Positions 308-26,643 are shown, counted from the first letter of the stretch. The stretch: DNA of 63,015 nt from a virus (IMGVR_UViG_3300009496_001865:1-63015); one strand, 5' to 3'. Notes: a model not told the origin generated them from the sequence alone. A program made the numbers and translations.

Positions 308-2669
308 TATCATTTTAATCGGTGCAGTAATTTTTGCTGTAGTTGGTTGTGCTAGTGGCGGTGGGAGTGCTGGTGTAAGTGCTCCTATTACTCCTCCACC
401 TAGTGGCGGTGGCTCAACTACACCAACACAGCCATATCAAACAATAGACAAGTTTGACTACACTTATAATACTATCCATGGAGATATTAATGTAAGTTAT
501 GGTAGTGGTAGTTATCTAGATGACAGCAACTTTCCAAAAACAGACAAGTATAAGATAGCAGATTACGGATTCTTTCAAATTACCACACAGGGTAGGCATG
601 ACGGGACAAGTAGAAATCCGCAAGAAACACAAGACGCAGGACCTTTCCTGAATGCTGGTGTTATCCATAGAGCGGACTTGAACGGAGATGGCCACCAAGA
701 CTTCTACTATGAAGGATTTTTTGAAGGAGACAGAGATGATATGCCTCGTTCATATTTACATGTTTTCTTAAATGATGGTAATGGGCACTTTGTTTATAGT
801 CCGGAACTATTTGCAGGTGGCTCTAGTCCATGTATTAATTACGGTGATCTTGATTACAAATCAGATCCACAGCATGAATGTGGATATGTTAGACATTTAC
901 AAAGAAGTTTAGTCGCTGACTTTAATGGTGATGGTATAGATGACTTTATGAAACCTAGTATTTTACATTTAAGTAATAACGGTTCTATAGAAAACAAAGG
1001 CATTTCTAACTTACCAGATTGGATGTTTGCTATAGACAGTAACCCTAATAGTCAAAACGGAGCATATAGTCATGATATCGTTGCTGGTGACATAGACAAC
1101 GATGGGGACTTAGATATATTTGGTAACTGGAGCCACAATGACTCAAATACTCCTGTTGGCATGGGTGTTATTCTTAACAACGGCACAGGTAACTTTACAG
1201 ATACTAATTGGAACTTTTATAAGATGCCTGCTCCATATGAAATTGGTGCGGATCACATACTATGGAATACTACAGCCGCTATAGGCGACTTTGATAATGA
1301 TGGTTATGTTGACGTTAGTGTAGGCTGGGCAAATCCAACTGAAGCAAGAATATATGGCTTTGGAGATACATACGAGTTTAGTGCTGGTGCAGTATTTTGG
1401 AATGATGGTAACATGGACTGGTCTAAACTTTGGTCAGAATTACCTGATAATTACTACGGAGCAAATGGTATTGCTAATGATATGGAAACATTAGATATCA
1501 ACAATGATGGTTATTTAGATATTATCCTAGCATCTACTAAAGTAGACCCATACTATGATGGTAGAGTTATTCAATTATTTCTAAATAACGGAGACGGCAC
1601 ATTTACAGATGTATCAGAGCAATACGGTTCTATTACAAAATATAAAGACGGCACTGGTAATTGGTGGAATGGTGAAGGCTCATTACATGTATTAGACTTT
1701 GATAACGATGGTGACTTAGATATAGTTGATAGTGTCAATGGCACTTATGTATTAATCAACAATGGCGGCTCATTTGAACTCTATGACAACTTTCCTAATC
1801 AAGGTGAATGTGGTGGATGTAGATATTACCCTATTGAGATAGACGGCAAATGGCAGTATGACTTTATTGGATATACTGATGAGCGAACAGCAGACTCGCA
1901 AACATCAACATTCTTTCAAGTATTAGACCCACCTCTAATGCAAATGATGACCGATATAACTACTAAACCTTCAGGGTATGTCAACACCATATTTGAATCT
2001 AAAAGCCTGTTAGACGACCTTAGAGTAAGTGTAAGAAGGAATAATTTGCTATATAACCGTGTAGAAGGTGCTGAAATGTTGGGTGCTAGTTACGGAAACT
2101 TCTTTATTGCTGACTTTAACGGCGATATAGAAGGTGGTTTAGTTGGTTGGGATACTACTACAGACACCCTTCACTTCGGATATTACTACGCCAATAGAAC
2201 CATAAAAGCACAAAACGATACTGTTTGGTATGGCACAGGCACCGCAGATATCAAGGTCGAATCTATTAATTCATTTGTAGAATACAATAAAATATTAACT
2301 CCAAACCTTTTAACTTCAATAGGATATGGTATGTCATATTCAAGAGTAAACGGATTTACAGAGAAAGACAGTTCGTTTAATGTAAAAGTAGATGGATTTA
2401 CTATGTTAGATGCAAACATATTTGCTGATTTAACATATACTATACAGAGTAAATTTGGACTATCACTCTTAACTGCAGGAGTAGACTACCATACTACATT
2501 AGAAGACACAAAAGTGAAATTTGGTAATGGTCTTAAATATAATTTTAATAGCGATTTAACAGTAGGCAAACTTATGCTTACACATAAGTGGAATAATATT
2601 TACTTTAAATTAAAAACTGATACAGAAGATCGTGTAACCAGTGAATTAGGTTTTATAATAAACCTTTAA
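288..2669 (+). CDS. Predicted lipoprotein with FG-GAP/VCBS repeats and a C-terminal autotransporter-like beta-barrel region
   Basis: Start moved to ATG 288 (MSKKIVDIILIGAVIFAVVGC: basic end, hydrophobic stretch, lipobox-like VVGC). A Gly/Pro/Thr linker follows, then six repeats of the DxNxDGxxD type (DLNGDGHQD, DFNGDGIDD, DIDNDGDLD, DFDNDGYVD, DINNDGYLD, DFDNDGDLD). The last ~230 aa show alternating amphipathic strands, including a GFTEK motif. Confidence 0.7.
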   Translation: MSKKIVDIILIGAVIFAVVGCASGGGSAGVSAPITPPPSGGGSTTPTQPYQTIDKFDYTYNTIHGDINVSYGSGSYLDDSNFPKTDKYKIADYGFFQITTQGRHDGTSRNPQETQDAGPFLNAGVIHRADLNGDGHQDFYYEGFFEGDRDDMPRSYLHVFLNDGNGHFVYSPELFAGGSSPCINYGDLDYKSDPQHECGYVRHLQRSLVADFNGDGIDDFMKPSILHLSNNGSIENKGISNLPDWMFAIDSNPNSQNGAYSHDIVAGDIDNDGDLDIFGNWSHNDSNTPVGMGVILNNGTGNFTDTNWNFYKMPAPYEIGADHILWNTTAAIGDFDNDGYVDVSVGWANPTEARIYGFGDTYEFSAGAVFWNDGNMDWSKLWSELPDNYYGANGIANDMETLDINNDGYLDIILASTKVDPYYDGRVIQLFLNNGDGTFTDVSEQYGSITKYKDGTGNWWNGEGSLHVLDFDNDGDLDIVDSVNGTYVLINNGGSFELYDNFPNQGECGGCRYYPIEIDGKWQYDFIGYTDERTADSQTSTFFQVLDPPLMQMMTDITTKPSGYVNTIFESKSLLDDLRVSVRRNNLLYNRVEGAEMLGASYGNFFIADFNGDIEGGLVGWDTTTDTLHFGYYYANRTIKAQNDTVWYGTGTADIKVESINSFVEYNKILTPNLLTSIGYGMSYSRVNGFTEKDSSFNVKVDGFTMLDANIFADLTYTIQSKFGLSLLTAGVDYHTTLEDTKVKFGNGLKYNFNSDLTVGKLMLTHKWNNIYFKLKTDTEDRVTSELGFIINL

Positions 2670-3540
2670 GTTTTGGAATAGCAAATTCGTTTGCCCATCT
2701 TTCTTGGGATTCAGCACTTAGGTGATGACAATGATCATGCGTAGGATAGTTTATAGGATCTTCCATTATTTCAAAGTCCCATTGTAGTGCATCTGATATA
2801 GTTTTATCATCAGGCTGAACAATTATATTTTCTTTTGGAATTATGTTCCACTCATTATACATTTCATCATATGGTGCCCTGTGTATTAATTCATGGTCAT
2901 CGATACTGTGGCCTTCTTTCATTGCATGAGCCTGAGCAAAATTAAATGTATTGGGAGACATAATAAACTTAGTTCCAGACTTTTGTAGTTTAGATACAGC
3001 ACTTTCTATAAGGTAATACTGTTTGTGTGCTTCTAAGTTATCATCATATAAATGAATATAGTAATCTCTAAATGCATAGAATTGTTTTTCACTCATATGA
3101 TGAGGCAACCAAGACCATTCTTCTATTGCTTCTTCATAAGTTCCCATTAAGTTACCAAATGAAACAAGACCTGTAATGCTTTGTGAAATAATTGTGGGAT
3201 CAAAATCTGGATCGTCTTTTGCAGGGTGGCAACGTTCATTATCAAAGAAGTCATCTACATCATAATCTAATTGTTTTAAACCATGTGTAGGATAATATCT
3301 TTTACCTTTATGGTTCCAGACTACTCTACAAGCAGTGGTCCAATTTACAAGTATTATATCTGCTTTAAGCACGTCTACAGCATAATCTATCTGTAATCGT
3401 ATACCAAAGTTATCACAGCCTACTCTAGCAATGTTGTGATACTCCCATCCAAAATGCTCAGCAATAAAATGACCATGTTCTGTTTTAGGAAAACTAGGGT
3501 CTCTACTGCTCCAACTACAACCACATACGACAAATTTCAT
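2653..3540 (-). CDS. SGNH/GDSL-fold protein (putative acyl/carbamoyl transferase or esterase), paralog 1
   Basis: Block I-like GCSW at the N-terminus, NIARVGCDN, DIILVNWT..R, and C-terminal DHCHHLS. Confidence 0.6.
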   Translation of the reverse strand: MKFVVCGCSWSSRDPSFPKTEHGHFIAEHFGWEYHNIARVGCDNFGIRLQIDYAVDVLKADIILVNWTTACRVVWNHKGKRYYPTHGLKQLDYDVDDFFDNERCHPAKDDPDFDPTIISQSITGLVSFGNLMGTYEEAIEEWSWLPHHMSEKQFYAFRDYYIHLYDDNLEAHKQYYLIESAVSKLQKSGTKFIMSPNTFNFAQAHAMKEGHSIDDHELIHRAPYDEMYNEWNIIPKENIIVQPDDKTISDALQWDFEIMEDPINYPTHDHCHHLSAESQERWANEFAIPKLKGLL

Positions 3541-3564: not shown

Positions 3565-4551
3565 ATGGAAAAAATTTTTATAGGTAACAAATATTATATA
3601 GTAGTTAAACTTCCATGGATCCAAACCCCTAACTTAGATCATATACAAAACGATCTTAAGAGCAGAAAGGCTAAGTTGGCTATACACTATCCAGCAGAAG
3701 CAATGCTATATGATAATAGTATGTATAAAAAGAATATAGAATATGACCCATACGAAACTTGCTTATCATTCAGAAAGGAACATGAAATGATTAATAAGTT
3801 GCTGTCTAAATACAACTTAGATGAATATGTATTGCTAGATAATAATCCATTTAACGAAATAAATTTTCCTAATAATTGTATTTATATTCCTCAATTTGCA
3901 TTAGACTATAACGACCCTGTTGCAAAAAAAGATACAAGAGATGCAGTATTCAGTAGTTTCAATCGCAGACCTAGTGGATCTAGGCTTAAAATAATAGATC
4001 ATATACATAGTAAAGACTCTGTATGGAGTTGCAACATGCCACAAGGATATGAACTAACAAGACTTAGTCAATACAAGCATCTTTTTAAAATGTTGCCTAA
4101 AACAGTCGATGCAGAATTTACTCCTATAGGCACAGGAATGAAAACACCAGTATCTCTGTATCAAAAAGCATACTTTCATATAATTAACGAAACATCTACA
4201 TGGTATGATCCTAACTATTTGTTTATAACTGAAAAAACATATAATTGTATTAATAGCAAAACACCATTTTTACTAGTTGGGCAACCCTTCACTTTAAAAC
4301 ATCTAAGAGAATTAGGCTTTAAAACATTCGAAGAGTTTTGGCCTGAAGATTATGATAGAGAATTAAATACCGATAAACGTGCTGGTATGGTTTGCGACTT
4401 AATAGATTATATAGAAGCAGATCATATAAGTATTTTTTATAAAGTGCAATCTGTGTTAGAACACAATTATAATCATCTTAGACAGATAAAAGAACATTAC
4501 AATCTAGAAAGTAAGTTATCTACCTTAGGCTTTAATACAGTATTAAAGTAG
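3565..4551 (+). CDS. Putative glycosyltransferase (GT10/GT-B-like C-terminal motif)
   Basis: YFHIINET...LFITEKTY...TPFLLVG...LRELGFKTF resembles the YITEK donor-binding motif of GT10 fucosyltransferases. Confidence 0.55.
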   Translation: MEKIFIGNKYYIVVKLPWIQTPNLDHIQNDLKSRKAKLAIHYPAEAMLYDNSMYKKNIEYDPYETCLSFRKEHEMINKLLSKYNLDEYVLLDNNPFNEINFPNNCIYIPQFALDYNDPVAKKDTRDAVFSSFNRRPSGSRLKIIDHIHSKDSVWSCNMPQGYELTRLSQYKHLFKMLPKTVDAEFTPIGTGMKTPVSLYQKAYFHIINETSTWYDPNYLFITEKTYNCINSKTPFLLVGQPFTLKHLRELGFKTFEEFWPEDYDRELNTDKRAGMVCDLIDYIEADHISIFYKVQSVLEHNYNHLRQIKEHYNLESKLSTLGFNTVLK

Positions 4552-5342
4552 TGCTTCTGTGCTTGAGGGGATATGTGATATGTTAGTTGTGCACCTGGAT
4601 TCCTACTATAGTCTTTCCAGCCTTTCATTTCTTCATCATGCTCTCTTAACATACTGGCCACACCTTTAATAGTATTTACGCCTGGTATAAATTCTACAAG
4701 TCTCTCCCAATAGTAAGCATTTTCGTTAACATCTTGCAAAAAGAATAATGTATTAGGGCTCATTAAAAAAGGCGTATCAGTTGTAATTAAATCAAATACA
4801 GCACTTTTTAATAAGTGTATTTGTTTTGCTAATTCTAATTTGCTATCATACCAATACAAATAATATTTTTTAAAACTATTAAACATTTCTTCTGTGATAG
4901 GCAACCCTTGTTCGCCCATAGTCGAAGTTTTGAAATGCTCGTATGATTCTTCATCTAACATAGTTGTTATGCTATTAAATGCCAATGGAGGATTGCAATC
5001 TACTACATGTTTCTTATTAACTTCTTCGTGTGGATTAATAGTGTAATCAAAATTTTCAATAGTTTGTGTAGGATTAAATGAGTTAGTTTTGTTATGATGC
5101 CATTCTATTCTTGTAGGAGTAGTCCAATTTACAATTACTAAATCAGCCTCATTTTTGATAGCAAAGTCAATTTGATTTCTTATAACAAAGTTGCTGGCAC
5201 CAACAGTAGCAAGATTTAAATAAAACGATTCTTCATACTCTCTGGTTAAATATTCTGCAACTATAGAGCCGAACTCTGTGTCTGGCACAGTCTCATCTCT
5301 ACTGCTCCAACTACATCCGCATATTGCAACTTTCAACTGCAT
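4497..5342 (-). CDS. SGNH/GDSL-fold protein, paralog 2
   Basis: ICGCSWSSRD (nearly identical to paralog 1), NLATVGASNFVIRNQIDFA, DLVIVNWT..R, C-terminal YHIS. Likely start is ATG 5342 or TTG 5336. Confidence 0.6.
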   Translation of the reverse strand: MQLKVAICGCSWSSRDETVPDTEFGSIVAEYLTREYEESFYLNLATVGASNFVIRNQIDFAIKNEADLVIVNWTTPTRIEWHHNKTNSFNPTQTIENFDYTINPHEEVNKKHVVDCNPPLAFNSITTMLDEESYEHFKTSTMGEQGLPITEEMFNSFKKYYLYWYDSKLELAKQIHLLKSAVFDLITTDTPFLMSPNTLFFLQDVNENAYYWERLVEFIPGVNTIKGVASMLREHDEEMKGWKDYSRNPGAQLTYHISPQAQKHYFNTVLKPKVDNLLSRL

Positions 5343-5490
5343 TCTCCAATAAAAGTCTTTTAACTGTTTCTTTACAAGTTCCACATTGCCTGCAGATACC
5401 TACTGTATTCATAAGATGCTCTATTGTATTCTCTTTTAGTAACTGCTTTAAATCAGTTTCATTTATATTTTTGCAAACACATACAATCAT
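5311..5490 (-). CDS. bfd: Bfd-like [2Fe-2S] ferredoxin, 59 aa (not in the supplied ORF track)
   Basis: Manual translation: MIVCVCKNINETDLKQLLKENTIEHLMNTVGICRQCGTCKETVKRLLLENAVESCNMRM. CxC...CGxC spacing as in Bfd, GGAGAGG Shine-Dalgarno, and an ATGA overlap with the upstream stop. Confidence 0.85.
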   Translation of the reverse strand: MIVCVCKNINETDLKQLLKENTIEHLMNTVGICRQCGTCKETVKRLLLENAVESCNMRM

Positions 5491-6035: not shown

Positions 6036-6706
6036 TACTTATAACCTATTTGCATATATCGTGTATAAGCAGGAGTCTCTAATGATCCAATGTAAAGAAT
6101 TTTACTTAAAGGATATTTTTCCTGCATCTCTTCTACAGTATAACATACATTTATGTGCCCGTCAAACTCTTCTTTATTATTTGTTTGCATAACAATTAAC
6201 TGTTCGCTACCTGCAGACTCAAACCATTCAGTTCCCATGTGTTCACAACTAGTGTTTATTACCATACCTGGCGATACTGCTATAAGTTCGCCGCTTGTTT
6301 CAAACTCCATATGGTTAGTATCTAATAAAGTTGCATCTGCTACAACACCTTTAAACTTCCAATTGTTGGCTACATGTTTTTGATTAAACTTTTCTGCTAG
6401 TTCTATACTATTAGCATCTATATCTATTCCGTATATACGTTCTATCGGAATACTTTTTAATAATGGTTCAACTAAACTTCCTATCCAACAACCTAACAAT
6501 ACTGCTGTAGAATTAGTTTTAATAGTATAATGATATAACTTATCTAACAGCCAACTTTTACTTGCTAATTGGCCTTTACTAAAAGCATCACGTGGATATC
6601 TACTATCCATGATTGCCCGTTCAAAGTAACTAGGCGCAATCTTCATAAACCCATTGTCTATGTAGTTTTCTACATCATCCCAAGTATCTAATTTTATTCG
6701 TTCCAT
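6035..6706 (-). CDS. Class I SAM-dependent methyltransferase-like protein
   Basis: Motif I-like VLLGCWIG, acidic YGIDID, VADA, and VINTSCEHM. Confidence 0.65.
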   Translation of the reverse strand: MERIKLDTWDDVENYIDNGFMKIAPSYFERAIMDSRYPRDAFSKGQLASKSWLLDKLYHYTIKTNSTAVLLGCWIGSLVEPLLKSIPIERIYGIDIDANSIELAEKFNQKHVANNWKFKGVVADATLLDTNHMEFETSGELIAVSPGMVINTSCEHMGTEWFESAGSEQLIVMQTNNKEEFDGHINVCYTVEEMQEKYPLSKILYIGSLETPAYTRYMQIGYK

Positions 6707-9700
6707 TGTTCTTCAAGCCATGTGTAATCGTTAATTTTACTTAACTGTTCTAAGTTATCTTTATTTGCAAGTGCAAATTGGTTCCCCTCTAGTGCTCCTC
6801 TTACTGCATCAGCAGTAAAGTCCTCTTCGCCCCTAGTGTTAAGCCAAGTGTCTAATCGACCTTGACTTTCTGCATCATCATTAAGTGTTAGTTTCACACA
6901 CTCTCTGAACGCACTCCTCCAAGTGCTAAATGCATCGGTATTAAATTTAGTAACACAACTAACCTCTGGCATAGACTTAAATCTATTACTAAGGCCAGTT
7001 GTGAAATCTATCCCCCAAGTGTTTGCGTCTTTAACCATTTCTGTTGGAAACAGTTTGACTCCTCCATAACCATATTCCAATCCATTTATAGGATTCTTAC
7101 TTGCCCATACGTGGACAACTTCTTCATCATATACATCAGGTATATAATCAAAGTTAAAACTTTCTGTAACCTCTGCATCAGCATCAACTACCCAAAACAT
7201 TTTAGTATCACATTGTTCTGCACATGCTTTGTGAGCCTCAAATATGCCCTTAACTCCTCTTACATGTTTTACTTCTAAACCTTTTTGCTCTAATATGTTT
7301 ATGTGTTCTTCTACTCTACGTAGATCTTCTTTATAACTTAATACAAATATTTCATTTGGAATTGATGTTGAACCTTCTTGTTTAACATATTTTAGATTTC
7401 TAAATTTATTCTGTTTTAGTATGTCCGATGTTAAATTAGTATAATCTGCATCTGTAGGCCAAAGTCTAAGTCCACCATAAGCATGAACTTTGTTTGTTTT
7501 AGGGTTTGTTTTCTGCCAAGTGTGAATTTTACCAACATCCATTATGTCAGGCATAAATCCGCTATCAAGCACCTTTTGATTCACTTTGATATCTGGGTCT
7601 GTAGTCCAAACAAAGGGCGTTTCTATGTCCTTTATTGCGTTTACAAACTCGTCTCTTTCTAAACTTTGCAAATGAATAACTGGCCATTTAGGCTTAAGGC
7701 TTGCTATAGTATTTATAAGTTTAAGGTTATCAAAACTATTATTTGCTATTTCTTTATCAGTATACTCTTTATCTAGTGCTGACTTTGGTATTAATCTAAC
7801 ATTTTTATATTCGCCGTCTTCGTCTGCAAACACATGGACATTCTTTTTATCCCATTGTGTAGGGTAGTAGTTAAAGTTGAAATCCTCATGTAATTGCGTA
7901 TATGCATCAACAATCCATAGCATATCAGCCTTAGACTGGCTTGCTAGACGCACATAGACGTCGTTTAAGCCGTCTTTGTAGTCATCTGGCTGTAAGTGAT
8001 ACACCGGATATGGTATTTGCACACATGCAGGTTCTCGTATATACTTAGGTCTACCTGTTGTTTGTGCTACTTTAGGACATAGTTTAATACCTGAATAATC
8101 ATATTGTTTTTGTGTAATTGGGTTAAGTTTTTGCCAAACATGTGTTTTGCCTTCGTCCCAAACCTCTGGTATAAAGTCAAAATCAAAATTATCTAAAACT
8201 GTAACATCTTCATCTATTACCCAAAACCAATTATTCCGACTCTTTAACCTGCCCTCTTCTTCGCTAGTAAACTTCTCAAACTCTACATCTGTAAATGGAG
8301 CAATTTGATGTATTACTATTCCTGCGTTACTGTATTCTTTTGGTATCCATCTTATTCCACCCATTTCATCTGGATACTTATGTTTAAGTTGATCTCCTAA
8401 ATGAAAAGTGTGTATCATATCTCTTTGAAAATCAGGTGGAACCCAATCTACTTCTTCGTCAAATTGATATTCTTTATCTATTATCCAACAGTCTTGTGTA
8501 ACTATACTGTAGTCATCTACATCTTCTACATACACTATTGGGTATTGTTTTGAACTTGTAGGCGAGTCTGTAATATACTTTGTTTCATCATGTTTAAGTG
8601 GAACAAGTTTTACACCACCACATCTATTATCACTTACGTTTGTAATACTTCTCGGATACTTGTGACTTAATTGATTTGGTATTTTAAATATGTGAATTGT
8701 TTTTTGATCATATTTGTGAGGAACGTAATCAAATACATTGTTTAATTCATGTTCTTCATCTATGAGCCAAAACATTTTAGTTCTACTTTTTCTTGCAAAT
8801 GAATCATAGTCATTTATATTATTAGAATAAAAAATATCAAATCTAACAGGACATATTCCTTGCTGGTATTTGTGTTTAGTAATATCAAAATCTTTATGGA
8901 CTAGCCTAACACCACCACAACGAGTATCCCATGGGTCAATAAAGTCTTTAGGATATCGTTCTTCTAAATGGCCAGGTATTTTAAATACATGAATGTAGTT
9001 ACGTTCATGTTCCTCAGGAACATATAATAGTTTACCATTAAAGTCAAACTCTCTATCTACTATCCAATACCAATCTGTTTTACTACGTTCAGCATAATCA
9101 CTATAGACATCTGATGTAAACTCATCTTCGTCTACATAGAATACATCATAGTTTTCATCTTCAACAGGACATGCAGGATGTATTTTTATTTCTGCTTTTT
9201 TCCAATCTTTAGGAACAAGTCTTACTCCGCCCATTGCCATAGGATACTTTTCTGTTAGTTGATAAGGCATTCTAAAAACATGTATCATACCTCCTTCAAA
9301 AGGATTAGGTATCCAGTCAACAGTCTTGGCATTTATTTTATGTTCTTGATCTATTAACCATACATACTCATCATCGAATATATCTCTTTGTTGCATATCG
9401 TTTACATCTTTAACATAAAGTATAGGATATGTAACATTTGCATCTAAGAAGTTATGATATTTTGTTTCGGCATTTTTCCAGTCTTTAGGAAACAGTTTAA
9501 TACCTCCTTCCTTCTCTGGATACTTGTGTTCTAGTTGACCTTTTAAATGAAAACTATGTATAAACGTAGGCTCAAAGTTTCCTGGTGCCCAATTGATGTC
9601 TGGGTCTAATTTGTAATCCTTATCCACACACCAAACATGGCTAGCATACGGATTGTTATCGAAATACTTTGCTGGTGTTTTAGTATTAAGTATATCAAAA

Positions 9701-9993
9701 CTTTTTTTACAAACAATCTTGTTTATCTGTTTAATACCATCGTTTGTTCTTTTTGGTATTAATCTTATTCCACCATAGTTGTTTGAATCCCACTTCCATA
9801 CATGTTCGTATTTTGTATCATACATATCAGGTCTATAATTAAACACATCATAATCTGTAACTTCAATGTTAGGCTCTACTAACCAATACATTTTAGTTTT
9901 AGGCAAGATTGTGTCAGCAGATTCAACTTGCTTTGCAAATGGTAATACTTCTTTTAGGCTAGTGTTACTGCCAATGTAAAATACATCAAACAT
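6694..9993 (-). CDS. Protein with ten tandem GT-A-like repeats; the last repeat is a complete glycosyltransferase-like domain
   Basis: Ten copies of W-x-x-(D/E)...P...H-x-(F/W)...GG(I/V)(K/R)L-x-P. The final copy (MFWVVDADA...NGLEYGYGGVKLFP...WRSAFRECVKL) matches the single-domain protein at 30117-31115. Confidence 0.65.
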   Translation of the reverse strand: MFDVFYIGSNTSLKEVLPFAKQVESADTILPKTKMYWLVEPNIEVTDYDVFNYRPDMYDTKYEHVWKWDSNNYGGIRLIPKRTNDGIKQINKIVCKKSFDILNTKTPAKYFDNNPYASHVWCVDKDYKLDPDINWAPGNFEPTFIHSFHLKGQLEHKYPEKEGGIKLFPKDWKNAETKYHNFLDANVTYPILYVKDVNDMQQRDIFDDEYVWLIDQEHKINAKTVDWIPNPFEGGMIHVFRMPYQLTEKYPMAMGGVRLVPKDWKKAEIKIHPACPVEDENYDVFYVDEDEFTSDVYSDYAERSKTDWYWIVDREFDFNGKLLYVPEEHERNYIHVFKIPGHLEERYPKDFIDPWDTRCGGVRLVHKDFDITKHKYQQGICPVRFDIFYSNNINDYDSFARKSRTKMFWLIDEEHELNNVFDYVPHKYDQKTIHIFKIPNQLSHKYPRSITNVSDNRCGGVKLVPLKHDETKYITDSPTSSKQYPIVYVEDVDDYSIVTQDCWIIDKEYQFDEEVDWVPPDFQRDMIHTFHLGDQLKHKYPDEMGGIRWIPKEYSNAGIVIHQIAPFTDVEFEKFTSEEEGRLKSRNNWFWVIDEDVTVLDNFDFDFIPEVWDEGKTHVWQKLNPITQKQYDYSGIKLCPKVAQTTGRPKYIREPACVQIPYPVYHLQPDDYKDGLNDVYVRLASQSKADMLWIVDAYTQLHEDFNFNYYPTQWDKKNVHVFADEDGEYKNVRLIPKSALDKEYTDKEIANNSFDNLKLINTIASLKPKWPVIHLQSLERDEFVNAIKDIETPFVWTTDPDIKVNQKVLDSGFMPDIMDVGKIHTWQKTNPKTNKVHAYGGLRLWPTDADYTNLTSDILKQNKFRNLKYVKQEGSTSIPNEIFVLSYKEDLRRVEEHINILEQKGLEVKHVRGVKGIFEAHKACAEQCDTKMFWVVDADAEVTESFNFDYIPDVYDEEVVHVWASKNPINGLEYGYGGVKLFPTEMVKDANTWGIDFTTGLSNRFKSMPEVSCVTKFNTDAFSTWRSAFRECVKLTLNDDAESQGRLDTWLNTRGEEDFTADAVRGALEGNQFALANKDNLEQLSKINDYTWLEEQWNE

Positions 9994-9994
9994 A

Positions 9995-11515
9995 TTAATC
10001 GTTTGTGTGAACTTTTACGCCGTAGTGCTTCTCGAATGCCTGTGCGTCTGCTATATCATTGACTATTGGTTGGCCTTTAATATTGAGACTTGTGTTTACT
10101 AGCATGGGACAGCCTGTTACTTTGTTGTATTCACTGAGCAACTTATACAATCCTGGGTGCTGTTTTTGGTTAACAGTTTGAACTCTACTTGTTCCATCCT
10201 CATGTATAATTGCAGGAAACTCCTCTGGTTTTTTGCACTTTGCAACGAATTGCATATATGGTGCATTGGTTATTCCTCCCGGCATGTCAAAATATTCATG
10301 GACATACTTCTCTAGTATCATTGGTGCAAATGGTCTAAACTTTTGACGATTCTTAATCGTGTTCATTTTGTCTTTAACTCTTGGTCCTCTAGGATCAGCA
10401 ACAAGTGATCTGTTGCCTAATGCCCTTGGTCCAAACTCCGCTCTGCCATTTGCTATTCCAAATAGTTCCCCTTTCTTCAAACTTGCTAATGCTTTCTTTA
10501 CTGGATATGGACCTTCTATGTTGTGGCCTAAATAAGGTCCATTCCAATTAACTTTCTTGCCTGTTGTATTATATAGATGTAGTGCCGCGGCACCTAGACT
10601 ACTTCCAGCATCACCTGGGTTAGGCATAATGTGTATATTTTTGTATCCTAATTCAAATAATCTACTATTAGCAACACAATTAAGAGCAACACCACCCATA
10701 CATACAATATTCTCACTTCCTGTAATATCTCTAGCATACTCGGCAAACGATAATATTCTCTTTTCAATTTGATGTTGTGCCGCGTATGCAATAGTAAAGT
10801 CATCATACTCTTTATATAAATTTGGATCTATGCCACGTTGTAAATTACCACTTCCTCTAATGCTCTGTCTATTAGATATCCATGCATGATGAAAAAAGAA
10901 AAAATCTTTGCCCATTTGCCTACTTAGTCTTTTACCTTCTACTGGATCACCATAAGCGGCCATGCCCATTAGAATGTATTCATCTTCCATAGGTTTAAGT
11001 CCAACTCGATGTGTTACTGCACTATAAAATAATCCTAAACTGCTAGGGAACCATACACTATGCAACTTTTTTAACTCGCCTTTTTTCCAGTGCCAGATGG
11101 TTGCTGTATCAAATTCTCCTATTGCGTCTATTACCATTACAGCACATTCGTCAAATCCACTAGTTAATACACCAGCGGCCGCATGTGTTTCATGATGCCA
11201 ATATTCTTTTGTTGGTATTTTTTTAAGTTCTGGATAAAACTGTTTTACCCATTTACGTTGTGACGGTTCTGATAATGCACTCCAGTTTCTCCCATAAATA
11301 TTTCTTAGACGTTTTGCCCAATCCTTTTCATGGAATACTATTTGGTCTGGAACACCATGTTCTAGAACAGCATTAATTAATTCTTTATTTAAAAAAGGAT
11401 CGTTTTTTTCCTTGCTATATCTTTCAGAGTGACCTGCAAAGACAATCTCATCGTCATCTAGAAGAGTAACTGCCGCATCGTGGAATCCAGAACTTATACC
11501 TAAAATCTTACTCAT
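9995..11515 (-). CDS. O-carbamoyltransferase, NodU/CmcH/TobZ family
   Basis: ILGIS.GFHDAA, SERYS..KND, HHETHAA, GGVALNC, GDAGSSLGAA, EFGPRALGNRS, FRPFAP, DGTSRVQTV, NTSLN. Confidence 0.95.
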   Translation of the reverse strand: MSKILGISSGFHDAAVTLLDDDEIVFAGHSERYSKEKNDPFLNKELINAVLEHGVPDQIVFHEKDWAKRLRNIYGRNWSALSEPSQRKWVKQFYPELKKIPTKEYWHHETHAAAGVLTSGFDECAVMVIDAIGEFDTATIWHWKKGELKKLHSVWFPSSLGLFYSAVTHRVGLKPMEDEYILMGMAAYGDPVEGKRLSRQMGKDFFFFHHAWISNRQSIRGSGNLQRGIDPNLYKEYDDFTIAYAAQHQIEKRILSFAEYARDITGSENIVCMGGVALNCVANSRLFELGYKNIHIMPNPGDAGSSLGAAALHLYNTTGKKVNWNGPYLGHNIEGPYPVKKALASLKKGELFGIANGRAEFGPRALGNRSLVADPRGPRVKDKMNTIKNRQKFRPFAPMILEKYVHEYFDMPGGITNAPYMQFVAKCKKPEEFPAIIHEDGTSRVQTVNQKQHPGLYKLLSEYNKVTGCPMLVNTSLNIKGQPIVNDIADAQAFEKHYGVKVHTND

Positions 11516-11688
11516 CTATATATAAAGGGATCCTTTTTCCTTAATTCTTTAATCTTTGCTTTTAACTTTTCTTCTTCTTCTTGAGTTAAACGTAGATCCT
11601 CACCGTCACTGCCTCGGTCTCTGTTACCCTCACCGTTTAATTCTGTTAAATCTTGTTGCTTGTTTTTATAGTTTTTATCTTCAGACAT
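11512..11688 (-). CDS. 58-aa soluble peptide ending in KELRKKDPFIYR (SxtK/DltX-like PFIY tail; not in the supplied ORF track)
   Basis: Manual translation: MSEDKNYKNKQQDLTELNGEGNRDRGSDGEDLRLTQEEEEKLKAKIKELRKKDPFIYR. TAAGGAG Shine-Dalgarno, fills the gap exactly, and its TGA overlaps the carbamoyltransferase ATG (ATGA). Confidence 0.8.
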   Translation of the reverse strand: MSEDKNYKNKQQDLTELNGEGNRDRGSDGEDLRLTQEEEEKLKAKIKELRKKDPFIYR

Positions 11689-12304
11689 TTGGTCTCCTTA
11701 CAAATTCTATTAATTTATCACACATTGATTGATGTATTGCTGGATCTACTGCATGTTGCGTTTCACTCCAGCCTTCAGGGTATTCCTTCATTGCGTCTTC
11801 GATTAATGATGTATGATGTAAATAATACTTATCCAAATTTATAAGATTCCATATATTAGACTGGTATCCTTCAGGAATTGCATTATACATATTACAAAAC
11901 ATATAATCTATTTTGTTATTTTCTAAATATTGCTGTAATAAAAATATATATAAAATTGTATTTTCTTTACCTATTTCAAAATCACATACATTTAAATCTA
12001 AGTATCTATAAAATTTTTCTAAATCAGTATCATCAGAATGTTTATCTAATGTGTAGTCAGCACGTTCACCTTTCCAAGTAAATTCAAATCGTTCTTGAGT
12101 TGTCCAGCCAATTAAAACAAAATCTGGCTTGCCATTTTCTTCTATGTATTCTATTGTTGATCTTAATATTCTATGATTACTACCACCAGGATGTGATAAA
12201 TTTACACAATCTATATCTAAGTGTTTTGCAAAAAGGTCTGCTACAGATGTAGTGCTTTCAGAACCTGCCATATGGCTACAACCATTTGCTAACAACTTAC
12301 CCAT
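11681..12304 (-). CDS. SGNH/GDSL-fold protein, paralog 3
   Basis: LLANGCSH, NLSHPGGSNHRILR, DFVLIGWT..ER, C-terminal ETQHA. Start at ATG 12304 after GGAG. Confidence 0.65.
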   Translation of the reverse strand: MGKLLANGCSHMAGSESTTSVADLFAKHLDIDCVNLSHPGGSNHRILRSTIEYIEENGKPDFVLIGWTTQERFEFTWKGERADYTLDKHSDDTDLEKFYRYLDLNVCDFEIGKENTILYIFLLQQYLENNKIDYMFCNMYNAIPEGYQSNIWNLINLDKYYLHHTSLIEDAMKEYPEGWSETQHAVDPAIHQSMCDKLIEFVRRPNV

Positions 12305-13085
12305 GTATTTCTCCAAACTTCCCATCTAACACATCAGCCATTTTGAATTGGCCTTTAGGAGAGAAATGATTATAATGATCATGATATTCAGGAGGTAGTT
12401 CTCTGTTTTCACCTATAACATAATCATCCATGCTATGTGCAAAATGCTGTAAGCATTTATATCTTTTATTATCATACTCAAACGAATAACATTCATCTTC
12501 GTATTCTGCTGTATGATAAAAACAATGGTAACTTTGATAACTTGTTATATTATGCCGTTTTATATAAAAGGCCCATGCATCTTTAATAGTTGTAAGTTGT
12601 CTTTGAGCCTCTCCTGTTGTTTGACCCCATGGTTTTAAATAAAGCCAGTAAAGTTCAATTGCTTGTCTTACTCTCTGGTCAAATCTTTTTTCATCCTTTA
12701 ATAGCGGAGTATCCGGTCCTGGTAGTGACATTTCACCTGGATGTAGGCGGTCTTCGAACTCAGGTCTTGATTTGTTAGATATAACTCCTGTAGATCTAAC
12801 TATTTGTCTTGTTTCATCACTCCAACAAAATACAAAATGTGTTTCATTTATATACTCTTGGCTGTTTGATGCAAGCCACTCTCTGAATTCATGTATCATC
12901 CAATTAGGACCATGGCCAGGAGTTCCGTTGTGAACTATTTGTAAATTATGTTTCTCTGCAAATATATCCATGTAACTAGGTGTTGGTGGGTAAAACAACG
13001 TATCAGTTCCATTAGATATTTTTCTAGATACTGTATCAAAACAGTAACTATCGCCAAAAAATGCTACTTTATCTATTTGAGGCAT
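12297..13085 (-). CDS. SGNH/GDSL-fold protein, paralog 4
   Basis: Canonical FFGDSY, NGTPGHG, FVFCWS..R, C-terminal DHYNHFSPKGQ. Confidence 0.6.
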   Translation of the reverse strand: MPQIDKVAFFGDSYCFDTVSRKISNGTDTLFYPPTPSYMDIFAEKHNLQIVHNGTPGHGPNWMIHEFREWLASNSQEYINETHFVFCWSDETRQIVRSTGVISNKSRPEFEDRLHPGEMSLPGPDTPLLKDEKRFDQRVRQAIELYWLYLKPWGQTTGEAQRQLTTIKDAWAFYIKRHNITSYQSYHCFYHTAEYEDECYSFEYDNKRYKCLQHFAHSMDDYVIGENRELPPEYHDHYNHFSPKGQFKMADVLDGKFGEIHG

Positions 13086-14373
13086 ACATCAGTTTCCATA
13101 ATTCAGGCAATGCCTCTCTCATTGACTCTTTGCGTTGCTTATCTAACATCTCAGTATATTTCTTAAAAGTATCTAGTTCCTGTTCCCAATTATCTTTACG
13201 ATTTTCTTTTAGTGCTTTTATTGTTGCTTCTATGCTTTGCTTATTCTCAGGCCTATGTGCAAGTATCTTACTACGTTTAAGCCATTGCTCTAATCTACCT
13301 GCGGCAACTTCTCTTACTTGCTCAGGACAGTTTCTAAAATCTAAACTTGTTGGATAATCGCATATTAGAAATGTTAAGAATATTTTTCTACCATATTCTT
13401 CTTCTAGTTCTTCTGCAAAGTCTAATAGTTTTGTAATAGTTAATACATTATATATTTGTATTACAGGACTAAACAATACTGTTCCAACAACATCACTAGC
13501 ACAATATGTTCTTAAGTTTTTCTCAACTCTGCTCCAATGACTTGCTCCTCTAATGTATTCATTTTCATGTCCATAAGCATCTACACTTATACACATTAAT
13601 ACATCTTTGAACTGCTCTACTAAATCTAAGAAACGTTTTTGTATGTTAGTCATGTTACTATTAAATACTAATTCTATGTCCTTAGCAATACCCATTTCCA
13701 CACATTTTTCCATAATCCAGTATACACGTTCTATGATAGTAGGTTCTCCGCCTGTGAAATAAAGTTTATTAACTCCTGGCAACCACTCTTCAACTTGTCG
13801 TAAAAATTCTGGATCATCTTCCCAATTGGTTATATTCTCAGCAAAATGGCCCCATGTAAAATTATCTCTAATGAACTGACCTGCTTCAGCATCAGCATTT
13901 TCTATCTTTACATATTCTTTGTTTATCTGTGAACTGTTTTGAGGTTGGCACATTCTACACTTCAGGTTACACATATTGCCAAGCCTAAAATCTAAATACA
14001 TTGGAGGATCTTCTACTCTATATCCATTCCTTTTACTTTTTTCAATCCTTTCAATAATCTCCTCTCCTCGATCACTGTATTCAAACCAGTCTCTGATGTA
14101 GTTTGTTCGATAACTCGGAAATCCCATATCCTCTAAATCATAACAATGTTCGCAACCTTTTACCACTTCGCCATCTAACATCTGCTTACGGATTTTACGC
14201 ATATGATTGTTATTCCAAACAGATTCTATGCGATCTCCTTTATTGAGGTCGACCATACTTCCATCATCGTTTTTAAAATTATCACGTGCAACACAGCACC
14301 AACTTAATGTTCCTGTAGGTTGGGTCATTACATGTATCCAGGGATACGGACAAAATGTTTTACTGTATTCCAT
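13069..14373 (-). CDS. Radical SAM enzyme with N-terminal twitch/SPASM-like domain (1 of 8)
   Basis: FCPYPW...WCC...CEHC, then CNLKCRMC and TGGEP. Confidence 0.92.
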   Translation of the reverse strand: MEYSKTFCPYPWIHVMTQPTGTLSWCCVARDNFKNDDGSMVDLNKGDRIESVWNNNHMRKIRKQMLDGEVVKGCEHCYDLEDMGFPSYRTNYIRDWFEYSDRGEEIIERIEKSKRNGYRVEDPPMYLDFRLGNMCNLKCRMCQPQNSSQINKEYVKIENADAEAGQFIRDNFTWGHFAENITNWEDDPEFLRQVEEWLPGVNKLYFTGGEPTIIERVYWIMEKCVEMGIAKDIELVFNSNMTNIQKRFLDLVEQFKDVLMCISVDAYGHENEYIRGASHWSRVEKNLRTYCASDVVGTVLFSPVIQIYNVLTITKLLDFAEELEEEYGRKIFLTFLICDYPTSLDFRNCPEQVREVAAGRLEQWLKRSKILAHRPENKQSIEATIKALKENRKDNWEQELDTFKKYTEMLDKQRKESMREALPELWKLMYASNR

Positions 14374-15523
14374 TCCAATACTCTCTTATAAATTCATATA
14401 GTGTAGGAAACGTTTCTTCAAAACTTTCCTTTCTATATGTATCTCCAAATTTAGTTGTATGAATAAACTGATAAAACTTATCAGATTCATAATGTTCATT
14501 GTTCATATAATCTAATGTTCTCTTAACATAATCAGGTTGGTTACCACTATAGAAGTTTAAGATCTTATTCTTTACTTCCTTAGGTAAACATTTTGCTGAC
14601 ATGTGTTTAGGTTCAAACACCATATTATAGTGAATGTGCATAGGCAAATTTGCTTCTACATATTCTGTTAATTCTTTTAAGTTACATATATTTAGTATAC
14701 CTATTGTTTGAAAAATTGAAAACTCTAAGTTTCCTTCTAATTTTGTAAACTTTTCTATATTTTCAAATACTTCTTCAAACTTTCCAGGATGCCTAATATA
14801 ATTAAACCTTTCATCTACATCATCTATACTAAAAAATATTTGCACCTTTTTAAAGTGTTTCCATAAATGAACTTTTTCTTCCGGAAACACACTACCATTT
14901 GTGTTATATGATAAATGAATGTTTTTTGCGTATCCTTTCTCTATACACTTTTCTAGTATATCAAAATGTCTTTCTATTAGTAAAGGTTCGCCGCCAAAGA
15001 ATTCAAATTTAACAATAGCATGTAGCATTGTATCAAGATCTTCCCAAAAGTCGTTGTTATGCTTAGGCCACATCCCCTTATGATTAAATGCAAGTATGCT
15101 GTCTTTCTTACTAGGGTCTATCTTTATTTCTTCTTTTGCCCATTGGCTACTTGCAAAAGTTGTGCAAATTCTACATTTACTATTGCAAATATTTCCTAGT
15201 TTTAAATCTAATGATGCAGGTTGTTCTGTTGCTTTTGGGTCTTCGAAGTCAAACATGGATCTATACCAAACGTTTTCTCTTTGCCTTTTACTTCGTATTC
15301 CTGCTTCTTCCTCATTCCAGCAATTACGACATGCTTCAGGTCTTTCGTCTCTTAAAAATGCTTGCCTGTAATTCTCTAGCCATTCACTATTCCATACTTC
15401 GCTAAGTGTTCCACCTTCTGCTAATGTAACTCCTGCATCGTCTTGCATTATACAACAAGGAGAAATAGTGCCATCAGTTCTAGCCTCTAAGTTTACAAAT
15501 GGTAATACACAAAAGTTTTTCAT
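14360..15523 (-). CDS. Radical SAM enzyme with N-terminal twitch domain (2 of 8)
   Basis: FCVLPF...PCC...CRNC, then CNSKCRIC and FGGEP. Confidence 0.92.
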   Translation of the reverse strand: MKNFCVLPFVNLEARTDGTISPCCIMQDDAGVTLAEGGTLSEVWNSEWLENYRQAFLRDERPEACRNCWNEEEAGIRSKRQRENVWYRSMFDFEDPKATEQPASLDLKLGNICNSKCRICTTFASSQWAKEEIKIDPSKKDSILAFNHKGMWPKHNNDFWEDLDTMLHAIVKFEFFGGEPLLIERHFDILEKCIEKGYAKNIHLSYNTNGSVFPEEKVHLWKHFKKVQIFFSIDDVDERFNYIRHPGKFEEVFENIEKFTKLEGNLEFSIFQTIGILNICNLKELTEYVEANLPMHIHYNMVFEPKHMSAKCLPKEVKNKILNFYSGNQPDYVKRTLDYMNNEHYESDKFYQFIHTTKFGDTYRKESFEETFPTLYEFIREYWNGIQ

Positions 15524-20670: not shown

Positions 20671-21489
20671 CTACCAGTTTAAAGTAGGTAGCAGATATTT
20701 GTCTACAAATAGTTCTGCAGTATTAGTTCCTGGGTGATCACCATCATCGTAAGTGCCAGTTCTATCTGGAAAAGTAAGTGCTAGTTCCCAAATGCCGTTC
20801 TTATTGTCATCAATAAAACACCAATTGCTGAAGTCTATTTGATTTACAATACTATCTAATTGTTCAAAATCGCACATATATGGTTCTGCATTAAGACCAA
20901 ATGAAAATTGTTCTGTGATATCTATATTAAATTTTTGTTTTTGCACTTCTGCATGACTCTTATTTAAATGATTCCTATAATTCATAAATGTATATGGAAT
21001 ATCATTTGCTTTACAATACTGTTGCAAGTCTATTATTTGTTGTAATGATTCAGCATAGTGTTGTAGCCAATTGACATTGTCGTAGTAACCTTTAAACAAT
21101 TCTATAAGTATCTCATTAATTGCAGGGTCATAATATCGCCAATTCTTCCATGCTCCAGAGTTGCCTCCTGACGAAACCCATAAGTTATGCGAAGACTTAC
21201 ATCTGTATTTCTTACCTGTGTTTAATATGTTGTATTGTTCTTGTGATACTTCTACGTCATATCTTGAAAAGCCACTCCACATGATTAATACATGGTCAAC
21301 TTCATTATTTTTAAGATAATCTATAGACGAATCTTTTATATAAAAGTTTCCTGCACCTAGATGTGCAAGGTTAGTAAATTCGTGCTCTGGAAATCTGTTT
21401 GCTAATATTTCGGGCCATCTAATTTTATCTTGTCTAAATCTTTCATTAGTTTTCCAAGTATAACTGCACCCATTACATAATACTTTCAT
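20671..21489 (-). CDS. SGNH/GDSL-fold protein, paralog 5
   Basis: VLCNGCSYT, NLAHLGAGN, DHVLIMWS..R, and canonical C-terminal DGDHPG. Confidence 0.7.
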   Translation of the reverse strand: MKVLCNGCSYTWKTNERFRQDKIRWPEILANRFPEHEFTNLAHLGAGNFYIKDSSIDYLKNNEVDHVLIMWSGFSRYDVEVSQEQYNILNTGKKYRCKSSHNLWVSSGGNSGAWKNWRYYDPAINEILIELFKGYYDNVNWLQHYAESLQQIIDLQQYCKANDIPYTFMNYRNHLNKSHAEVQKQKFNIDITEQFSFGLNAEPYMCDFEQLDSIVNQIDFSNWCFIDDNKNGIWELALTFPDRTGTYDDGDHPGTNTAELFVDKYLLPTLNW

Positions 21490-22159
21490 ATCTATCAATC
21501 TCTGGTCTTAGGAACTTGTCTATTAAGTAATAATGCTTACATTCAAGCAATGCTCTTTCGACACATTCTATATCTTTTTTGCGTGACGTGTTTTCTCTTT
21601 TACCCGGTTCTATCTCTAATACTTCAGACATGAACCAATCTAAGTTACTGCTATCTATATACGATATGTTTTTAAACTGTTCGCAAAAGTCAATATAATT
21701 GCATGTATGGTAATTGGTATGCAATGTAAATGCTCTGCCCCAACTATGTGTTGCTTGTTGTTGTCCATCACAAATAAATTGTGTCAAGTAAAATAGTCTG
21801 TCTATGTATTCAACTAGTCTATCATGATCATAAACAACTTTTTCCCATAAAGGCAAAAACTCATCTCCAGGAGCAATTCCACTAATGTAATCTTGTAGTA
21901 TTTCTTTAAAGCCACTTACATATCTCTGCCATGGTTCTCTGATTATAAAAATTATTTCATAGTTTTCTTTATGCAAGTGTTCTACTATATCTTCTTGCCT
22001 GCTCATTCCACTAAAGTGTTCTGGGCCTATGCCATACCAATCGACATCTCCTTCCCCAATTGTTTTCCAATCAGTGCTTAATCTATTTTGTAGAGTTGTT
22101 GTTCCAGTCTTACCTTTACTGAATATACATATTTTCTTATCGTCGTTTATTGCTAACAT
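21473..22159 (-). CDS. Sulfotransferase-like protein (Sulfotransfer_2-like)
   Basis: 5'-PSB-like GKTGTTTL near the N-terminus, 3'-PB-like IIREPWQRYVSG, and a terminal ENTS motif. Confidence 0.6.
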   Translation of the reverse strand: MLAINDDKKICIFSKGKTGTTTLQNRLSTDWKTIGEGDVDWYGIGPEHFSGMSRQEDIVEHLHKENYEIIFIIREPWQRYVSGFKEILQDYISGIAPGDEFLPLWEKVVYDHDRLVEYIDRLFYLTQFICDGQQQATHSWGRAFTLHTNYHTCNYIDFCEQFKNISYIDSSNLDWFMSEVLEIEPGKRENTSRKKDIECVERALLECKHYYLIDKFLRPEIDRYESIM

Positions 22160-25961: not shown

Positions 25962-26643
25962 AAAGTTTTGTCCAATAGTGTGTGTATAATTCAAACTGCC
26001 ATTCGTAATCTATGTCTAAACATTCAAACTCAGATACTTCAAATAGTTTAGGATTATTTTTGCTATATGGAGGTCTGCCCATCCATACACCATTTTTAAT
26101 TTTATCTAATTTACCTGCATATAAAACATGGCCTGCTTCGTAGATAGTTTCTACTGCTTTGGTATTCATTATGTTATTTCCAATTGGCCATTTTGAGATT
26201 AAATTTCCTGCGGTATCCCAAAAGTATTGTTTCTTTGGTATAACTGCAAACTGTCCATCATAAGGGTTAGTAAGATACTCGTCTATAAAATTATCTATTG
26301 TTTCTACTTCTAGGAATAAGTTACAAGCATTTATAAGTATTGCATACTTGTATTGTGGAAATTGATCATGCCATTCGTATATCTTCTGCAAACTTGTGTC
26401 ATTGTTTGCACTCTCAACACTTCTCTTGTAATGCTTTACACCATTGTTATCGCATATATCTATAAGTTCTTGTTCGCATACACTAGCACGGAATTGTTCT
26501 AAGGGTATTTTAGATTTCTTAATTTTTTTAAGTGCAATATCAAATAAGTTTGTGCCTGCAAAAGGCCTAATCATTTTTTGAGGTGCTCGTTCGCTATTAA
26601 CTCTTGCTTGAATTATAAAAAGTATATCGTTTAGATTTTTCAT
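25954..26643 (-). CDS. neuA: Acylneuraminate cytidylyltransferase (CMP-nonulosonate synthetase) family
   Basis: IIQARVNSERAPQKMIRPFAG at the N-terminus and ECLDIDYEWQF at the C-terminus. Adjacent to neuB. Confidence 0.85.
   Translation of the reverse strand: MKNLNDILFIIQARVNSERAPQKMIRPFAGTNLFDIALKKIKKSKIPLEQFRASVCEQELIDICDNNGVKHYKRSVESANNDTSLQKIYEWHDQFPQYKYAILINACNLFLEVETIDNFIDEYLTNPYDGQFAVIPKKQYFWDTAGNLISKWPIGNNIMNTKAVETIYEAGHVLYAGKLDKIKNGVWMGRPPYSKNNPKLFEVSEFECLDIDYEWQFELYTHYWTKLYG

Follow-up and report, generated by a model that had tools for sequence, protein, structure and literature searches.

A DPFIY-tailed microprotein conserved beside a phage carbamoyltransferase and SGNH proteins: a possible soluble carbamoyl-tyrosine shuttle

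The window analysed here is the whole of a 63,015-base stretch of viral DNA (IMGVR_UViG_3300009496_001865:1-63015), which carries T4-like structural genes (gp25, a tail lysozyme and an open reading frame (ORF) of 5,403 amino acids) and, on the minus strand, a long island of sugar-tailoring genes. Inside this island, on the same strand, lie a carbamoyltransferase (CT; 9995..11515), a 58-residue microprotein (11512..11688) and two SGNH-like proteins (11681..12325 and 12297..13085). A Pfam scan that covered 40 window ORFs, the 5,403-residue frame lying outside that set, identified in the island two NeuB-type genes, a cytidylyltransferase, a UDP-sugar dehydrogenase, methyltransferases and nine radical SAM genes; no MBOAT, SxtJ or DUF5989 was found among the 40 ORFs, and the initial annotation, which had described the locus as free of MBOAT and SxtJ, was right in this respect. 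That annotation had also proposed that a carbamoyl group passes from the CT to the tyrosine of the microprotein and from there, by way of an SGNH serine, to a sugar hydroxyl. Comparison across loci indicates that the tail peptide, the NodU/TobZ-type CT and the SGNH proteins are a conserved module that occurs with variable gene order in phages and bacteria, including many marine phages and soil species, and it is this module, and the chemistry it may carry out, that is considered below.

The microprotein starts at an ATG at 11688-11686, which has an 8-nt overlap with the stop of the upstream gene, and a Shine-Dalgarno-like AAGGAG can be read at 11694..11699 (minus strand), 5 nt 5' of this ATG. 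At its other end the stop overlaps the CT start as ATGA (TCAT on the plus strand, 11512-11515; CT ATG at 11515-11513, peptide TGA at 11514-11512), so that the coupling of the two genes claimed in the initial annotation is borne out by the coordinates. The protein has a variable acidic N-terminal part, a basic helix and a C-terminal DPFIYR, the C-terminus reading KELRKKDPFIYR, and its conserved last 14 codons (K-I-K-E-L-R-K-K-D-P-F-I-Y-R, 11515..11556, minus strand) include Tyr57, the proposed carbamoyl acceptor. Among 36 aligned relatives D53, P54, F55 and Y57 are the only invariant residues; a basic helix of about ten residues (L-K-K-K-L-E-E-L-R-K-R) comes directly before the tail, and the N-terminal region consists either of acidic filler or of a brief amphipathic segment. 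In 53 unique nucleotide tails, which were selected on the motif with Tyr required and are informative for synonymous variation only, the codons at D, P, F, I and Y vary between GAT and GAC, four Pro codons, TTT and TTC, ATA, ATT and ATC, and TAC and TAT. Because synonymous codons vary at the invariant residues, the constraint acts on the protein and not on an RNA element, and a conserved RNA or DNA element in place of the peptide is ruled out by this free variation. As judged from these comparisons, the small ORF is real and its tail is constrained at the level of the protein.

A profile of the alignment, searched against 1.84 billion representative proteins, places the microprotein in a family of 336 clusters (E<=1e-3; clusters at 50% identity). 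This search used no motif filter and the motif is nevertheless present in 147 of the 150 best matches, with the Tyr nearly always next to last. The spacing between the Tyr and the stop does vary (Y-stop, YK-stop, YKNF-stop and YHNR-stop all occur), and three of the 150 best relatives carry full FXYXXF-type ends (FIYKNF, FVYKSF and FIYKSF). In all but three of the 150 the 19-residue Kyte-Doolittle maximum is below 1.6, the exceptions lying at 2.27-2.54 and two of them having no motif; the window peptide, which falls outside the 150-match table, is visibly hydrophilic by sequence. Free tail peptides are 27-77 residues long, with a non-conserved N-terminal part. One 75-residue member (P0040) contains two complete helix-plus-DPFIYK units in a single frame, reflecting either a tandem duplication or two neighbouring peptide genes joined by read-through. 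Neither Pfam (E<=10, with the window peptide and seven relatives) nor PHROG gave a family match for the microprotein, and a word-indexed protein search returned close relatives only, 39 proteins in all, 38 of them at 56-100% identity and the last a partial match at E 5e-3. The initial annotation had called the ORF unlisted, which holds only in a relative sense, as public gene callers do list it, under the name of hypothetical protein. The tblastn search it had recommended for small ORFs of this kind was unproductive, with no match to the peptide at E<=10 in 50,697 phage records; since the Ralstonia phage RsoM2USA holds an unannotated tail ORF, this null result is probably due to the low-complexity filter.

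The CT drew 80 IMG/VR loci at 46-94% identity, 76 of which have the CT N-terminus on the contig; neighbour counts refer to the fetched flanks of 3-4 kb. In 63 of these 76 viral loci an ORF that terminates in DPF[IVLM]Y, with 0-1 further residues, has its stop no more than a few bases from the start of the CT, with the 4-nt ATGA overlap in 43, and a looser search finds a tail ORF anywhere on the CT strand in 68 of the 76. The linkage of the PFIY tail to the CT, on whose conservation the initial annotation had made its proposal depend, is to this extent upheld. The arrangement has exceptions: in L052, L061-63 and L082 the tail lies 740-2000 nt upstream of the CT, and in L089 it ends a gene downstream of it. 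One IMG/VR locus (L054, 38-5446) has three tandem CT paralogs, the third of which is preceded by a single tail ORF and a single SGNH-like ORF.

The CT itself is a class III (NodU/TobZ/GdmN-type) O-carbamoyltransferase with Kae1-like and YrdC-like domains (Carbam_trans_N, PF02543, 8.6e-37; Carbam_trans_C, PF16861, 4.6e-53; phrog_1601), and its relatives in the PDB are NovN, GdmN and TobZ (E 1e-45 to 3e-54). By a HMMER alignment read together with the GdmN structure paper (PMC9633730), H12, H107, H111, D130 and D302 correspond to GdmN H27, H133, H137, D156 and D333, the D302-D333 equivalence resting on a conserved GD motif and its offset rather than on a printed alignment pair. The general base H12 and the four iron ligands H107, H111, D130 and D302 are 100% conserved in 72 tail-linked CTs. 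The window protein is the same two-domain enzyme as TobZ, GdmN and NovN; the difference is that the solved enzymes have small molecules as their direct substrates. A tree built from 135 CT rows has a branch with 99% support in the Shimodaira-Hasegawa-like approximate likelihood ratio test (SH-aLRT) that separates 93 rows, among them every one of the 72 that are tail-linked, from 42 rows of which none is tail-linked. The tail-linked clade also has pocket residues of its own (I132, S165, P175 and G228, 88-100% conserved), where the far clade has other residues, at 28-35%. Residues 38-43 of the CT read N-D-P-F-L-N and resemble the K-D-P-F-I-Y of the peptide; the interface modelled with the peptide helix includes residues 41 and 43-44.

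The third element of the module is the SGNH protein. The initial annotation had placed two SGNH genes immediately upstream of the microprotein and three more in the island, and all five can be recovered. The protein at 11681..12325 matches DUF6071 (6e-9, 36.3 bits against a cutoff of 27) and has the block I motif GCSH at residues 15-18, G15 and S17 being invariant in an alignment of 22 sequences. Its model (predicted local distance difference test (pLDDT) 92.1) has 79 Foldseek matches at E<=1e-3, mostly GDSL/SGNH esterases, among them TesA (E 1e-5, template modelling scores 0.55/0.63), acetyl-xylan esterases and, at ranks 34-35, the peptidoglycan O-acetyltransferase PatB. Its block V retains the conserved His (..TQH..) and has no Asp three residues before it, while relatives at other loci have the classic D..HP...H. 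The second protein (12297..13085) belongs to the same family alignment, with GDSY (..FFGDSY) at residue 11 and NHFSPKG near the C-terminus; its nearest Atlas clusters are viral, and DUF6071 is assigned to 25% of the members of one of them. A PDB sequence search with these two proteins gave nothing useful. The three further paralogs, all on the minus strand, are at 20671..21498 (DUF6071 below threshold, 5.7e-6, 26.6 bits against 27; this protein is itself a row of the 22-sequence alignment, so its match to the hidden Markov model (HMM) of that alignment is by construction), at 4497..5384 (GCSW; outside the alignment, HMM E 4.2e-11) and at 2653..3540 (GCSW; no HMM match at E<=1, 33% identical to 4497-5384 at E 2e-43).

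The association of SGNH proteins with tail and CT extends well beyond the window. Matches to the SGNH family HMM occur in 46 of the 80 viral loci, in 8 of 20 bacterial loci with a close CT (L081-L100), and in none of 50 bacterial loci with a far-clade CT. The order SGNH-peptide-CT is that of the window and of many marine loci; peptide-SGNH-CT is found in RsoM2USA (L161, MG752970.1), where the SGNH gene matches DUF6071 at 2e-12 and the unannotated tail ORF (..IRKQDPFIYK, at about 2030-2136 of the locus) lies between RsoM2USA_201 and RsoM2USA_200; and peptide-CT-SGNH is found in Actinomycetota (Streptomyces, Agromyces and Nocardia). All three genes of the RsoM2USA module are hypothetical proteins or unannotated in the record. 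In a metagenome-assembled genome of the Terrimicrobiaceae the ORF upstream of the CT encodes a canonical SGNH protein (GDSH...DGIH) that continues into a linker of about 55 residues and then ..RVRAMKRKDPFIY-stop, a natural fusion of SGNH protein and tail whose model has the SGNH fold. Of 81 clusters of homologues of this fusion 55 end in the tail, and the others stop about 55 residues earlier. A metagenome search from this SGNH-tail family gave 18 close loci, 13 of which have the C-terminus of the protein and at least 1.4 kb downstream on the contig; in all 13 the tail is present and a CT (44-48% identical to that of the window) begins 3-43 nt after it, and in five of these loci the tail occupies a short frame of its own, a split that resembles the gene arrangement of the phages. 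A profile of the SGNH-tail protein run over 401 genomes of the class of a Geodermatophilus genome found that genome only, in what was a stricter first look. The bacterial neighbours include glycosyltransferase family 2 (GT2) genes and TylF-like methyltransferases.

The initial annotation had asked for a multimer prediction of the peptide with the transferase, and the answer is favourable in part. Complex prediction of the CT with the peptide gave a median score of 0.74, the best of three controls scoring 0.00; the score mark is reached by 116 of 157 solved complexes and by 2 of 215 mismatched pairs, although own alignments were used here and the calibration is only rough. In the modelled interface, to which residues 32-58 of the peptide contribute, the helix rests on residues 41-44 and 77-95 of the CT, and the tail contacts residues 11, 131-132, 162, 165-166, 169, 175-176 and 225-228. 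According to the alignment and PMC9633730, these tail contacts flank the general base H12 (H27 of GdmN) and the iron ligand D130 (D156); mapped through GdmN, residues 131-132 belong to the oxyanion-hole loop that follows the Asp ligand, 160-177 to helix 2 and loop 3, and about 70-95 to helix 1 of the acceptor pocket. The modelled tail thus occupies the site at which the carbamoyl-receiving molecule is bound in solved relatives. The tail-contacting CT residues are 72-100% conserved in the 72 tail-linked CTs and differ in 42 far-clade CTs, and the helix-contacting residues vary, as does the peptide helix. The model of the natural SGNH-tail fusion is confident for the SGNH domain and the helix; it contains no support for a Tyr-to-Ser step and nothing against one either.

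Given this arrangement, it is suggested that the module is a soluble carbamoyl-tyrosine shuttle. The class III CT would make carbamoyl-AMP from ATP and carbamoyl phosphate, like its solved relatives, and would transfer the carbamoyl group to the hydroxyl of the invariant Tyr of the DPFIY tail as this enters the acceptor pocket. The resulting O-carbamoyl-tyrosine, an aryl carbamate, may then serve as donor for the serine nucleophile of the SGNH protein, as suggested by co-occurrence, by the fusions and by the chemistry established for DltX/DltD and PatA/PatB; and the SGNH protein may hand the group to a hydroxyl of a glycan made by the phage, a step to which the gene context points. Different SGNH paralogs could serve different acceptor positions, and the idea of the initial annotation that several paralogs are involved is consistent with the five in the window. 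The first step taken by itself, carbamoylation of Tyr57 by the CT, is considered probable, given the docking, the invariance of the Tyr and two precedents (HypE, and NodU-like enzymes acting on ribosomal peptides). The complete path from CT to Tyr to SGNH Ser to glycan, in which every covalent step as well as the acceptor is deduced, is put forward more tentatively, as close to an even call. The broader proposal is a doubtful one: that a ribosomally made carbamoyl-carrier Tyr serves the carbamoylation of large or multiple glycan acceptors, one CT charging it and the SGNH paralogs discharging it in the cytoplasm with no membrane enzyme, and that the DUF5989/SxtK and SxtJ sets are the membrane-crossing version of the same principle.

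The precedent for such a shuttle is the acyl-Tyr in a C-terminal FXYXXF, which is described in PMC12148441 as donating to SGNH partners in DltX/DltD and PatA/PatB. The likeness to DltX-DltB-DltD and PatA-PatB lies in an invariant Tyr within a short hydrophobic F-x-Y at the C-terminus, carried by a microprotein or fused to a pathway enzyme, and in a partner of the SGNH fold; a few tail relatives even carry the full F-[IV]-Y-K-[NS]-F. The differences are several. The donor is an ATP-dependent Kae1/YrdC-type CT and not an MBOAT, the group is carbamoyl and not acetyl or D-alanyl, the tail family has no transmembrane segment or membrane step, the last Phe is usually absent while a basic helix and Asp-Pro precede the motif, and where the tail is fused it is on the SGNH protein rather than on the donor. 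The mode of action proposed here is thus one that resembles the DltX/PatA tyrosine shuttle, yet in which the marks of membership of that family (MBOAT, membrane segment, usual terminal Phe) are missing.

A second comparison is with the DUF5989 (PF19451) microproteins and with SxtK of the saxitoxin sxtI-J-K-L set, the latter presumably a DUF5989 member, in which a microprotein ending in PF[IVLM]Y also stands beside a NodU-type CT. In 5 of 60 bacterial loci with a far-clade CT, a DUF5989 microprotein ending in APF.Y.L[FL] is found downstream of that CT, once (L118) together with SxtJ (PF19588) and a GDSL-like gene. DUF5989 differs in having a transmembrane helix, in its position downstream of the CT and in the CT clade, and the window peptide has no match to its profile and no SxtJ in the window. 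Two metagenome contigs (L192 and L206) carry DUF5989-like microproteins ending in ..ALSPFIYILF near distant GDSL-like relatives of the SGNH-tail family, which hints that the membrane version also keeps an SGNH partner. What links the peptide to DltX or SxtK is no more than a motif in common, and neither with DltX nor with DUF5989 is homology demonstrable. The relay drawn in the initial annotation from these systems is supported in part, by the conserved three-part module and the modelled position of the tail in the CT acceptor pocket.

A third comparison concerns the placing of a carbamoyl-derived group on a C-terminal residue by a Kae1/YrdC-type enzyme, as in the pair HypF-HypE; HypF shares domains of this type. 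In the Hyp system, according to PMC12130793, the group ends on the C-terminal cysteine of HypE in a conserved PRIC motif. The acceptor there is Cys and not Tyr, HypE is a 330-residue enzyme that dehydrates the adduct to cyanide, and no SGNH protein takes part. The literature searched contained no mention of DUF5989, nothing that joins the acyl-shuttle idea with carbamoyl transfer and nothing relevant on phage carbamoyltransferases in glycan islands.

A number of observations weigh against the shuttle. Enzymes that form a carbamoyl-serine usually turn over slowly, which would make the transfer from the SGNH protein to the glycan chemically demanding. The window ends in F-I-Y-R-stop and lacks the C-terminal hexapeptide F-x-Y-x-x-F, the terminal Phe being absent here, as the initial annotation had cautioned, and in most relatives, and hhalign of the tail family against four DUF5989 sequences aligned four columns (PFIY) at 10% probability. 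One of the three complex runs scored 0.00 (the others 0.76 and 0.74), reported contact agreement was at least 0%, and the pLDDT of the peptide was low, given as at least 37 overall and as 38-58 in the single runs; in the fusion model, likewise, the last residues are at about 58 and the linker below 50. The viral loci are not independent, the 63 with an abutting tail holding 47 unique peptides, and of 65 tail-bearing viral loci only 42 have an SGNH-like ORF in the fetched flank. Proteins of class II aldolase-like or HAD-like type also end in the tail in some viral loci, and the phage gene most faithfully linked to the tail is that of a repeat protein, with relatives in 59 of 68 tail-bearing and in none of eight tail-less viral loci. 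Finally, GdmN and TobZ carbamoylate small molecules directly, as set out in PMC9633730, and a carrier is not needed a priori.

The strongest rival, although an unlikely one, fits the same trio and takes the microprotein for the precursor of a RiPP (a peptide made on the ribosome and modified after translation), with the conserved C-terminal residues as its core: the CT would carbamoylate the core and the SGNH hydrolase would cut, as CgnD does in crocagin biosynthesis, the product being a small carbamoylated peptide or, in the fusions, a tail modified for a single use. The core of the crocagin precursor CgnA is reportedly the tripeptide Ile-Tyr-Trp. In PMC10070186 the crocagin system comprises CgnA, the core-releasing CgnD (a 'putative esterase') and the carbamoyltransferase CgnI, the core includes Tyr and Trp, and the leader has many positive charges beside the core, a feature that the microprotein shares. 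The likeness extends to the Std cluster (StdA/StdF), since in both a small ribosomal peptide with a conserved C-terminal motif has a NodU-like CT next to it, and crocagin has an esterase-fold hydrolase as well; a 2026 preprint, moreover, describes a NodU-like enzyme that carbamoylates a lysine in a conserved C-terminal core. Radical SAM/SPASM homologues flank the trio in 32 of the 80 viral CT loci, as a RiPP-like pathway might have it, and a tail docked in the acceptor pocket fits this reading equally. CgnD is found at rank 8 among the PDB structural matches of the bacterial SGNH-tail fusion model but does not appear in the matches listed for the SGNH model of the phage. In crocagin and Std, however, the peptide is consumed into a natural product, whereas the context here is one of glycan synthesis, the neighbours being sugar-nucleotide and glycosyltransferase-type genes, and five SGNH paralogs for one peptide and one CT would be odd for a leader protease. 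No RRE (RiPP recognition element), YcaO, peptidase or exporter was seen among the ORFs scanned, in a survey that is incomplete; genes of the type of the peptide-binding CgnB and CgnE and of the dioxygenase CgnC were not seen either, and the general Pfam scans of the window, which included no search aimed at it, contained no dioxygenase. The F-[IV]-Y motif with an SGNH partner is, moreover, what the shuttle precedent has.

It is also conceivable, if quite improbable, that the Tyr is never loaded and that the helix and DPFIY form a non-covalent subunit of the CT, be it an activator, a specificity factor, a gate of the acceptor pocket or, when fused, a tether. The complex model indeed supports binding and not chemistry, and the fusions of the tail to SGNH, aldolase-like and HAD-like proteins would bring these enzymes to the CT. 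However, a free peptide of 27-77 residues with a non-conserved N-terminal part cannot tether, and a pure tether was rejected as free peptides have no second conserved binding part. A tail that fills the acceptor pocket by the general base would block the CT rather than help it. The Tyr, furthermore, is invariant and never Phe in the 53 unique tails, as a reactive hydroxyl predicts; the argument is weak for tails selected for Tyr, but the unfiltered profile search still returns the motif in nearly all of its best matches.

That the conserved C-terminus acts in the ribosome tunnel as a leader or arrest peptide, controlling CT translation through the ATGA overlap, is very improbable: a conserved C-terminus, a variable N-terminus and a stop that overlaps the downstream start are the usual signature of such peptides, the overlap is found in 43 of the 63 loci with an abutting tail, and the sole Shine-Dalgarno-like element of the CT is a weak AAAGGA that lies inside the peptide coding region, some 16 nt upstream, but the tail is not always before the CT (it precedes the SGNH gene in RsoM2USA, and lies at a distance or downstream in the loci named above), the distance from Tyr to stop varies, and the SGNH co-occurrence and fusion and the modelled fit to the CT pocket would be left unexplained.

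Directly downstream of the CT lies a 1099-residue protein (6694..9993, minus strand) with a C-terminal GT-A-like region (DAD motif; weak Pfam GT2 match, E 0.037) and, by eye, some ten repeats of 90-100 residues (W.[IV]D.. / D[WFY][IV]P / [IT]H.F / KYP...GG[IV][RK]L.PK), the last of which sits in the GT-A-like domain. This is the repeat protein whose linkage to the tail was mentioned above, and it likely builds or binds the acceptor. The nine radical SAM genes lie on the minus strand at 13069-19278, 22159-23568 and 26640-30093, and in six of them an N-terminal SPASM domain precedes the radical SAM core, which is an unusual order. A 332-residue protein with no family match (30117-31115, minus strand) has relatives in 55 of the 80 CT loci, often between pieces of the repeat protein. 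Two giant ORFs on the minus strand, at 38944-55155 (5,403 residues) and 55159-59340 (1,393 residues, no Pfam family), adjoin baseplate genes; both are presumed to be giant fibre or wall proteins, on which the island glycan may be carried.

The microprotein family described here, of at least 336 clusters, is one that no library describes, and the tyrosine acyl shuttle has been established just recently and for membrane MBOAT-SGNH pairs alone. A soluble version would provide a testable role for DUF6071 and for many SGNH genes of phage glycan islands, as well as a concrete hypothesis for SxtJ/SxtK-type genes beside carbamoyltransferases, and the system is simple to test: two soluble enzymes would be combined with ATP, carbamoyl phosphate and either the 58-residue peptide or a 25-mer. 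Should the RiPP-like reading be right instead, peptide carbamoylation encoded by abundant marine phages would itself be new. With an ATP-dependent CT as the driving enzyme, a soluble shuttle would show the principle to be older and wider. If the broader proposal is true, there would be a mechanism for the sxtJ/sxtK genes and for many O-carbamoylations of bacterial polysaccharides, and the tyrosine shuttle would be a general solution to group transfer that extends beyond MBOAT systems.

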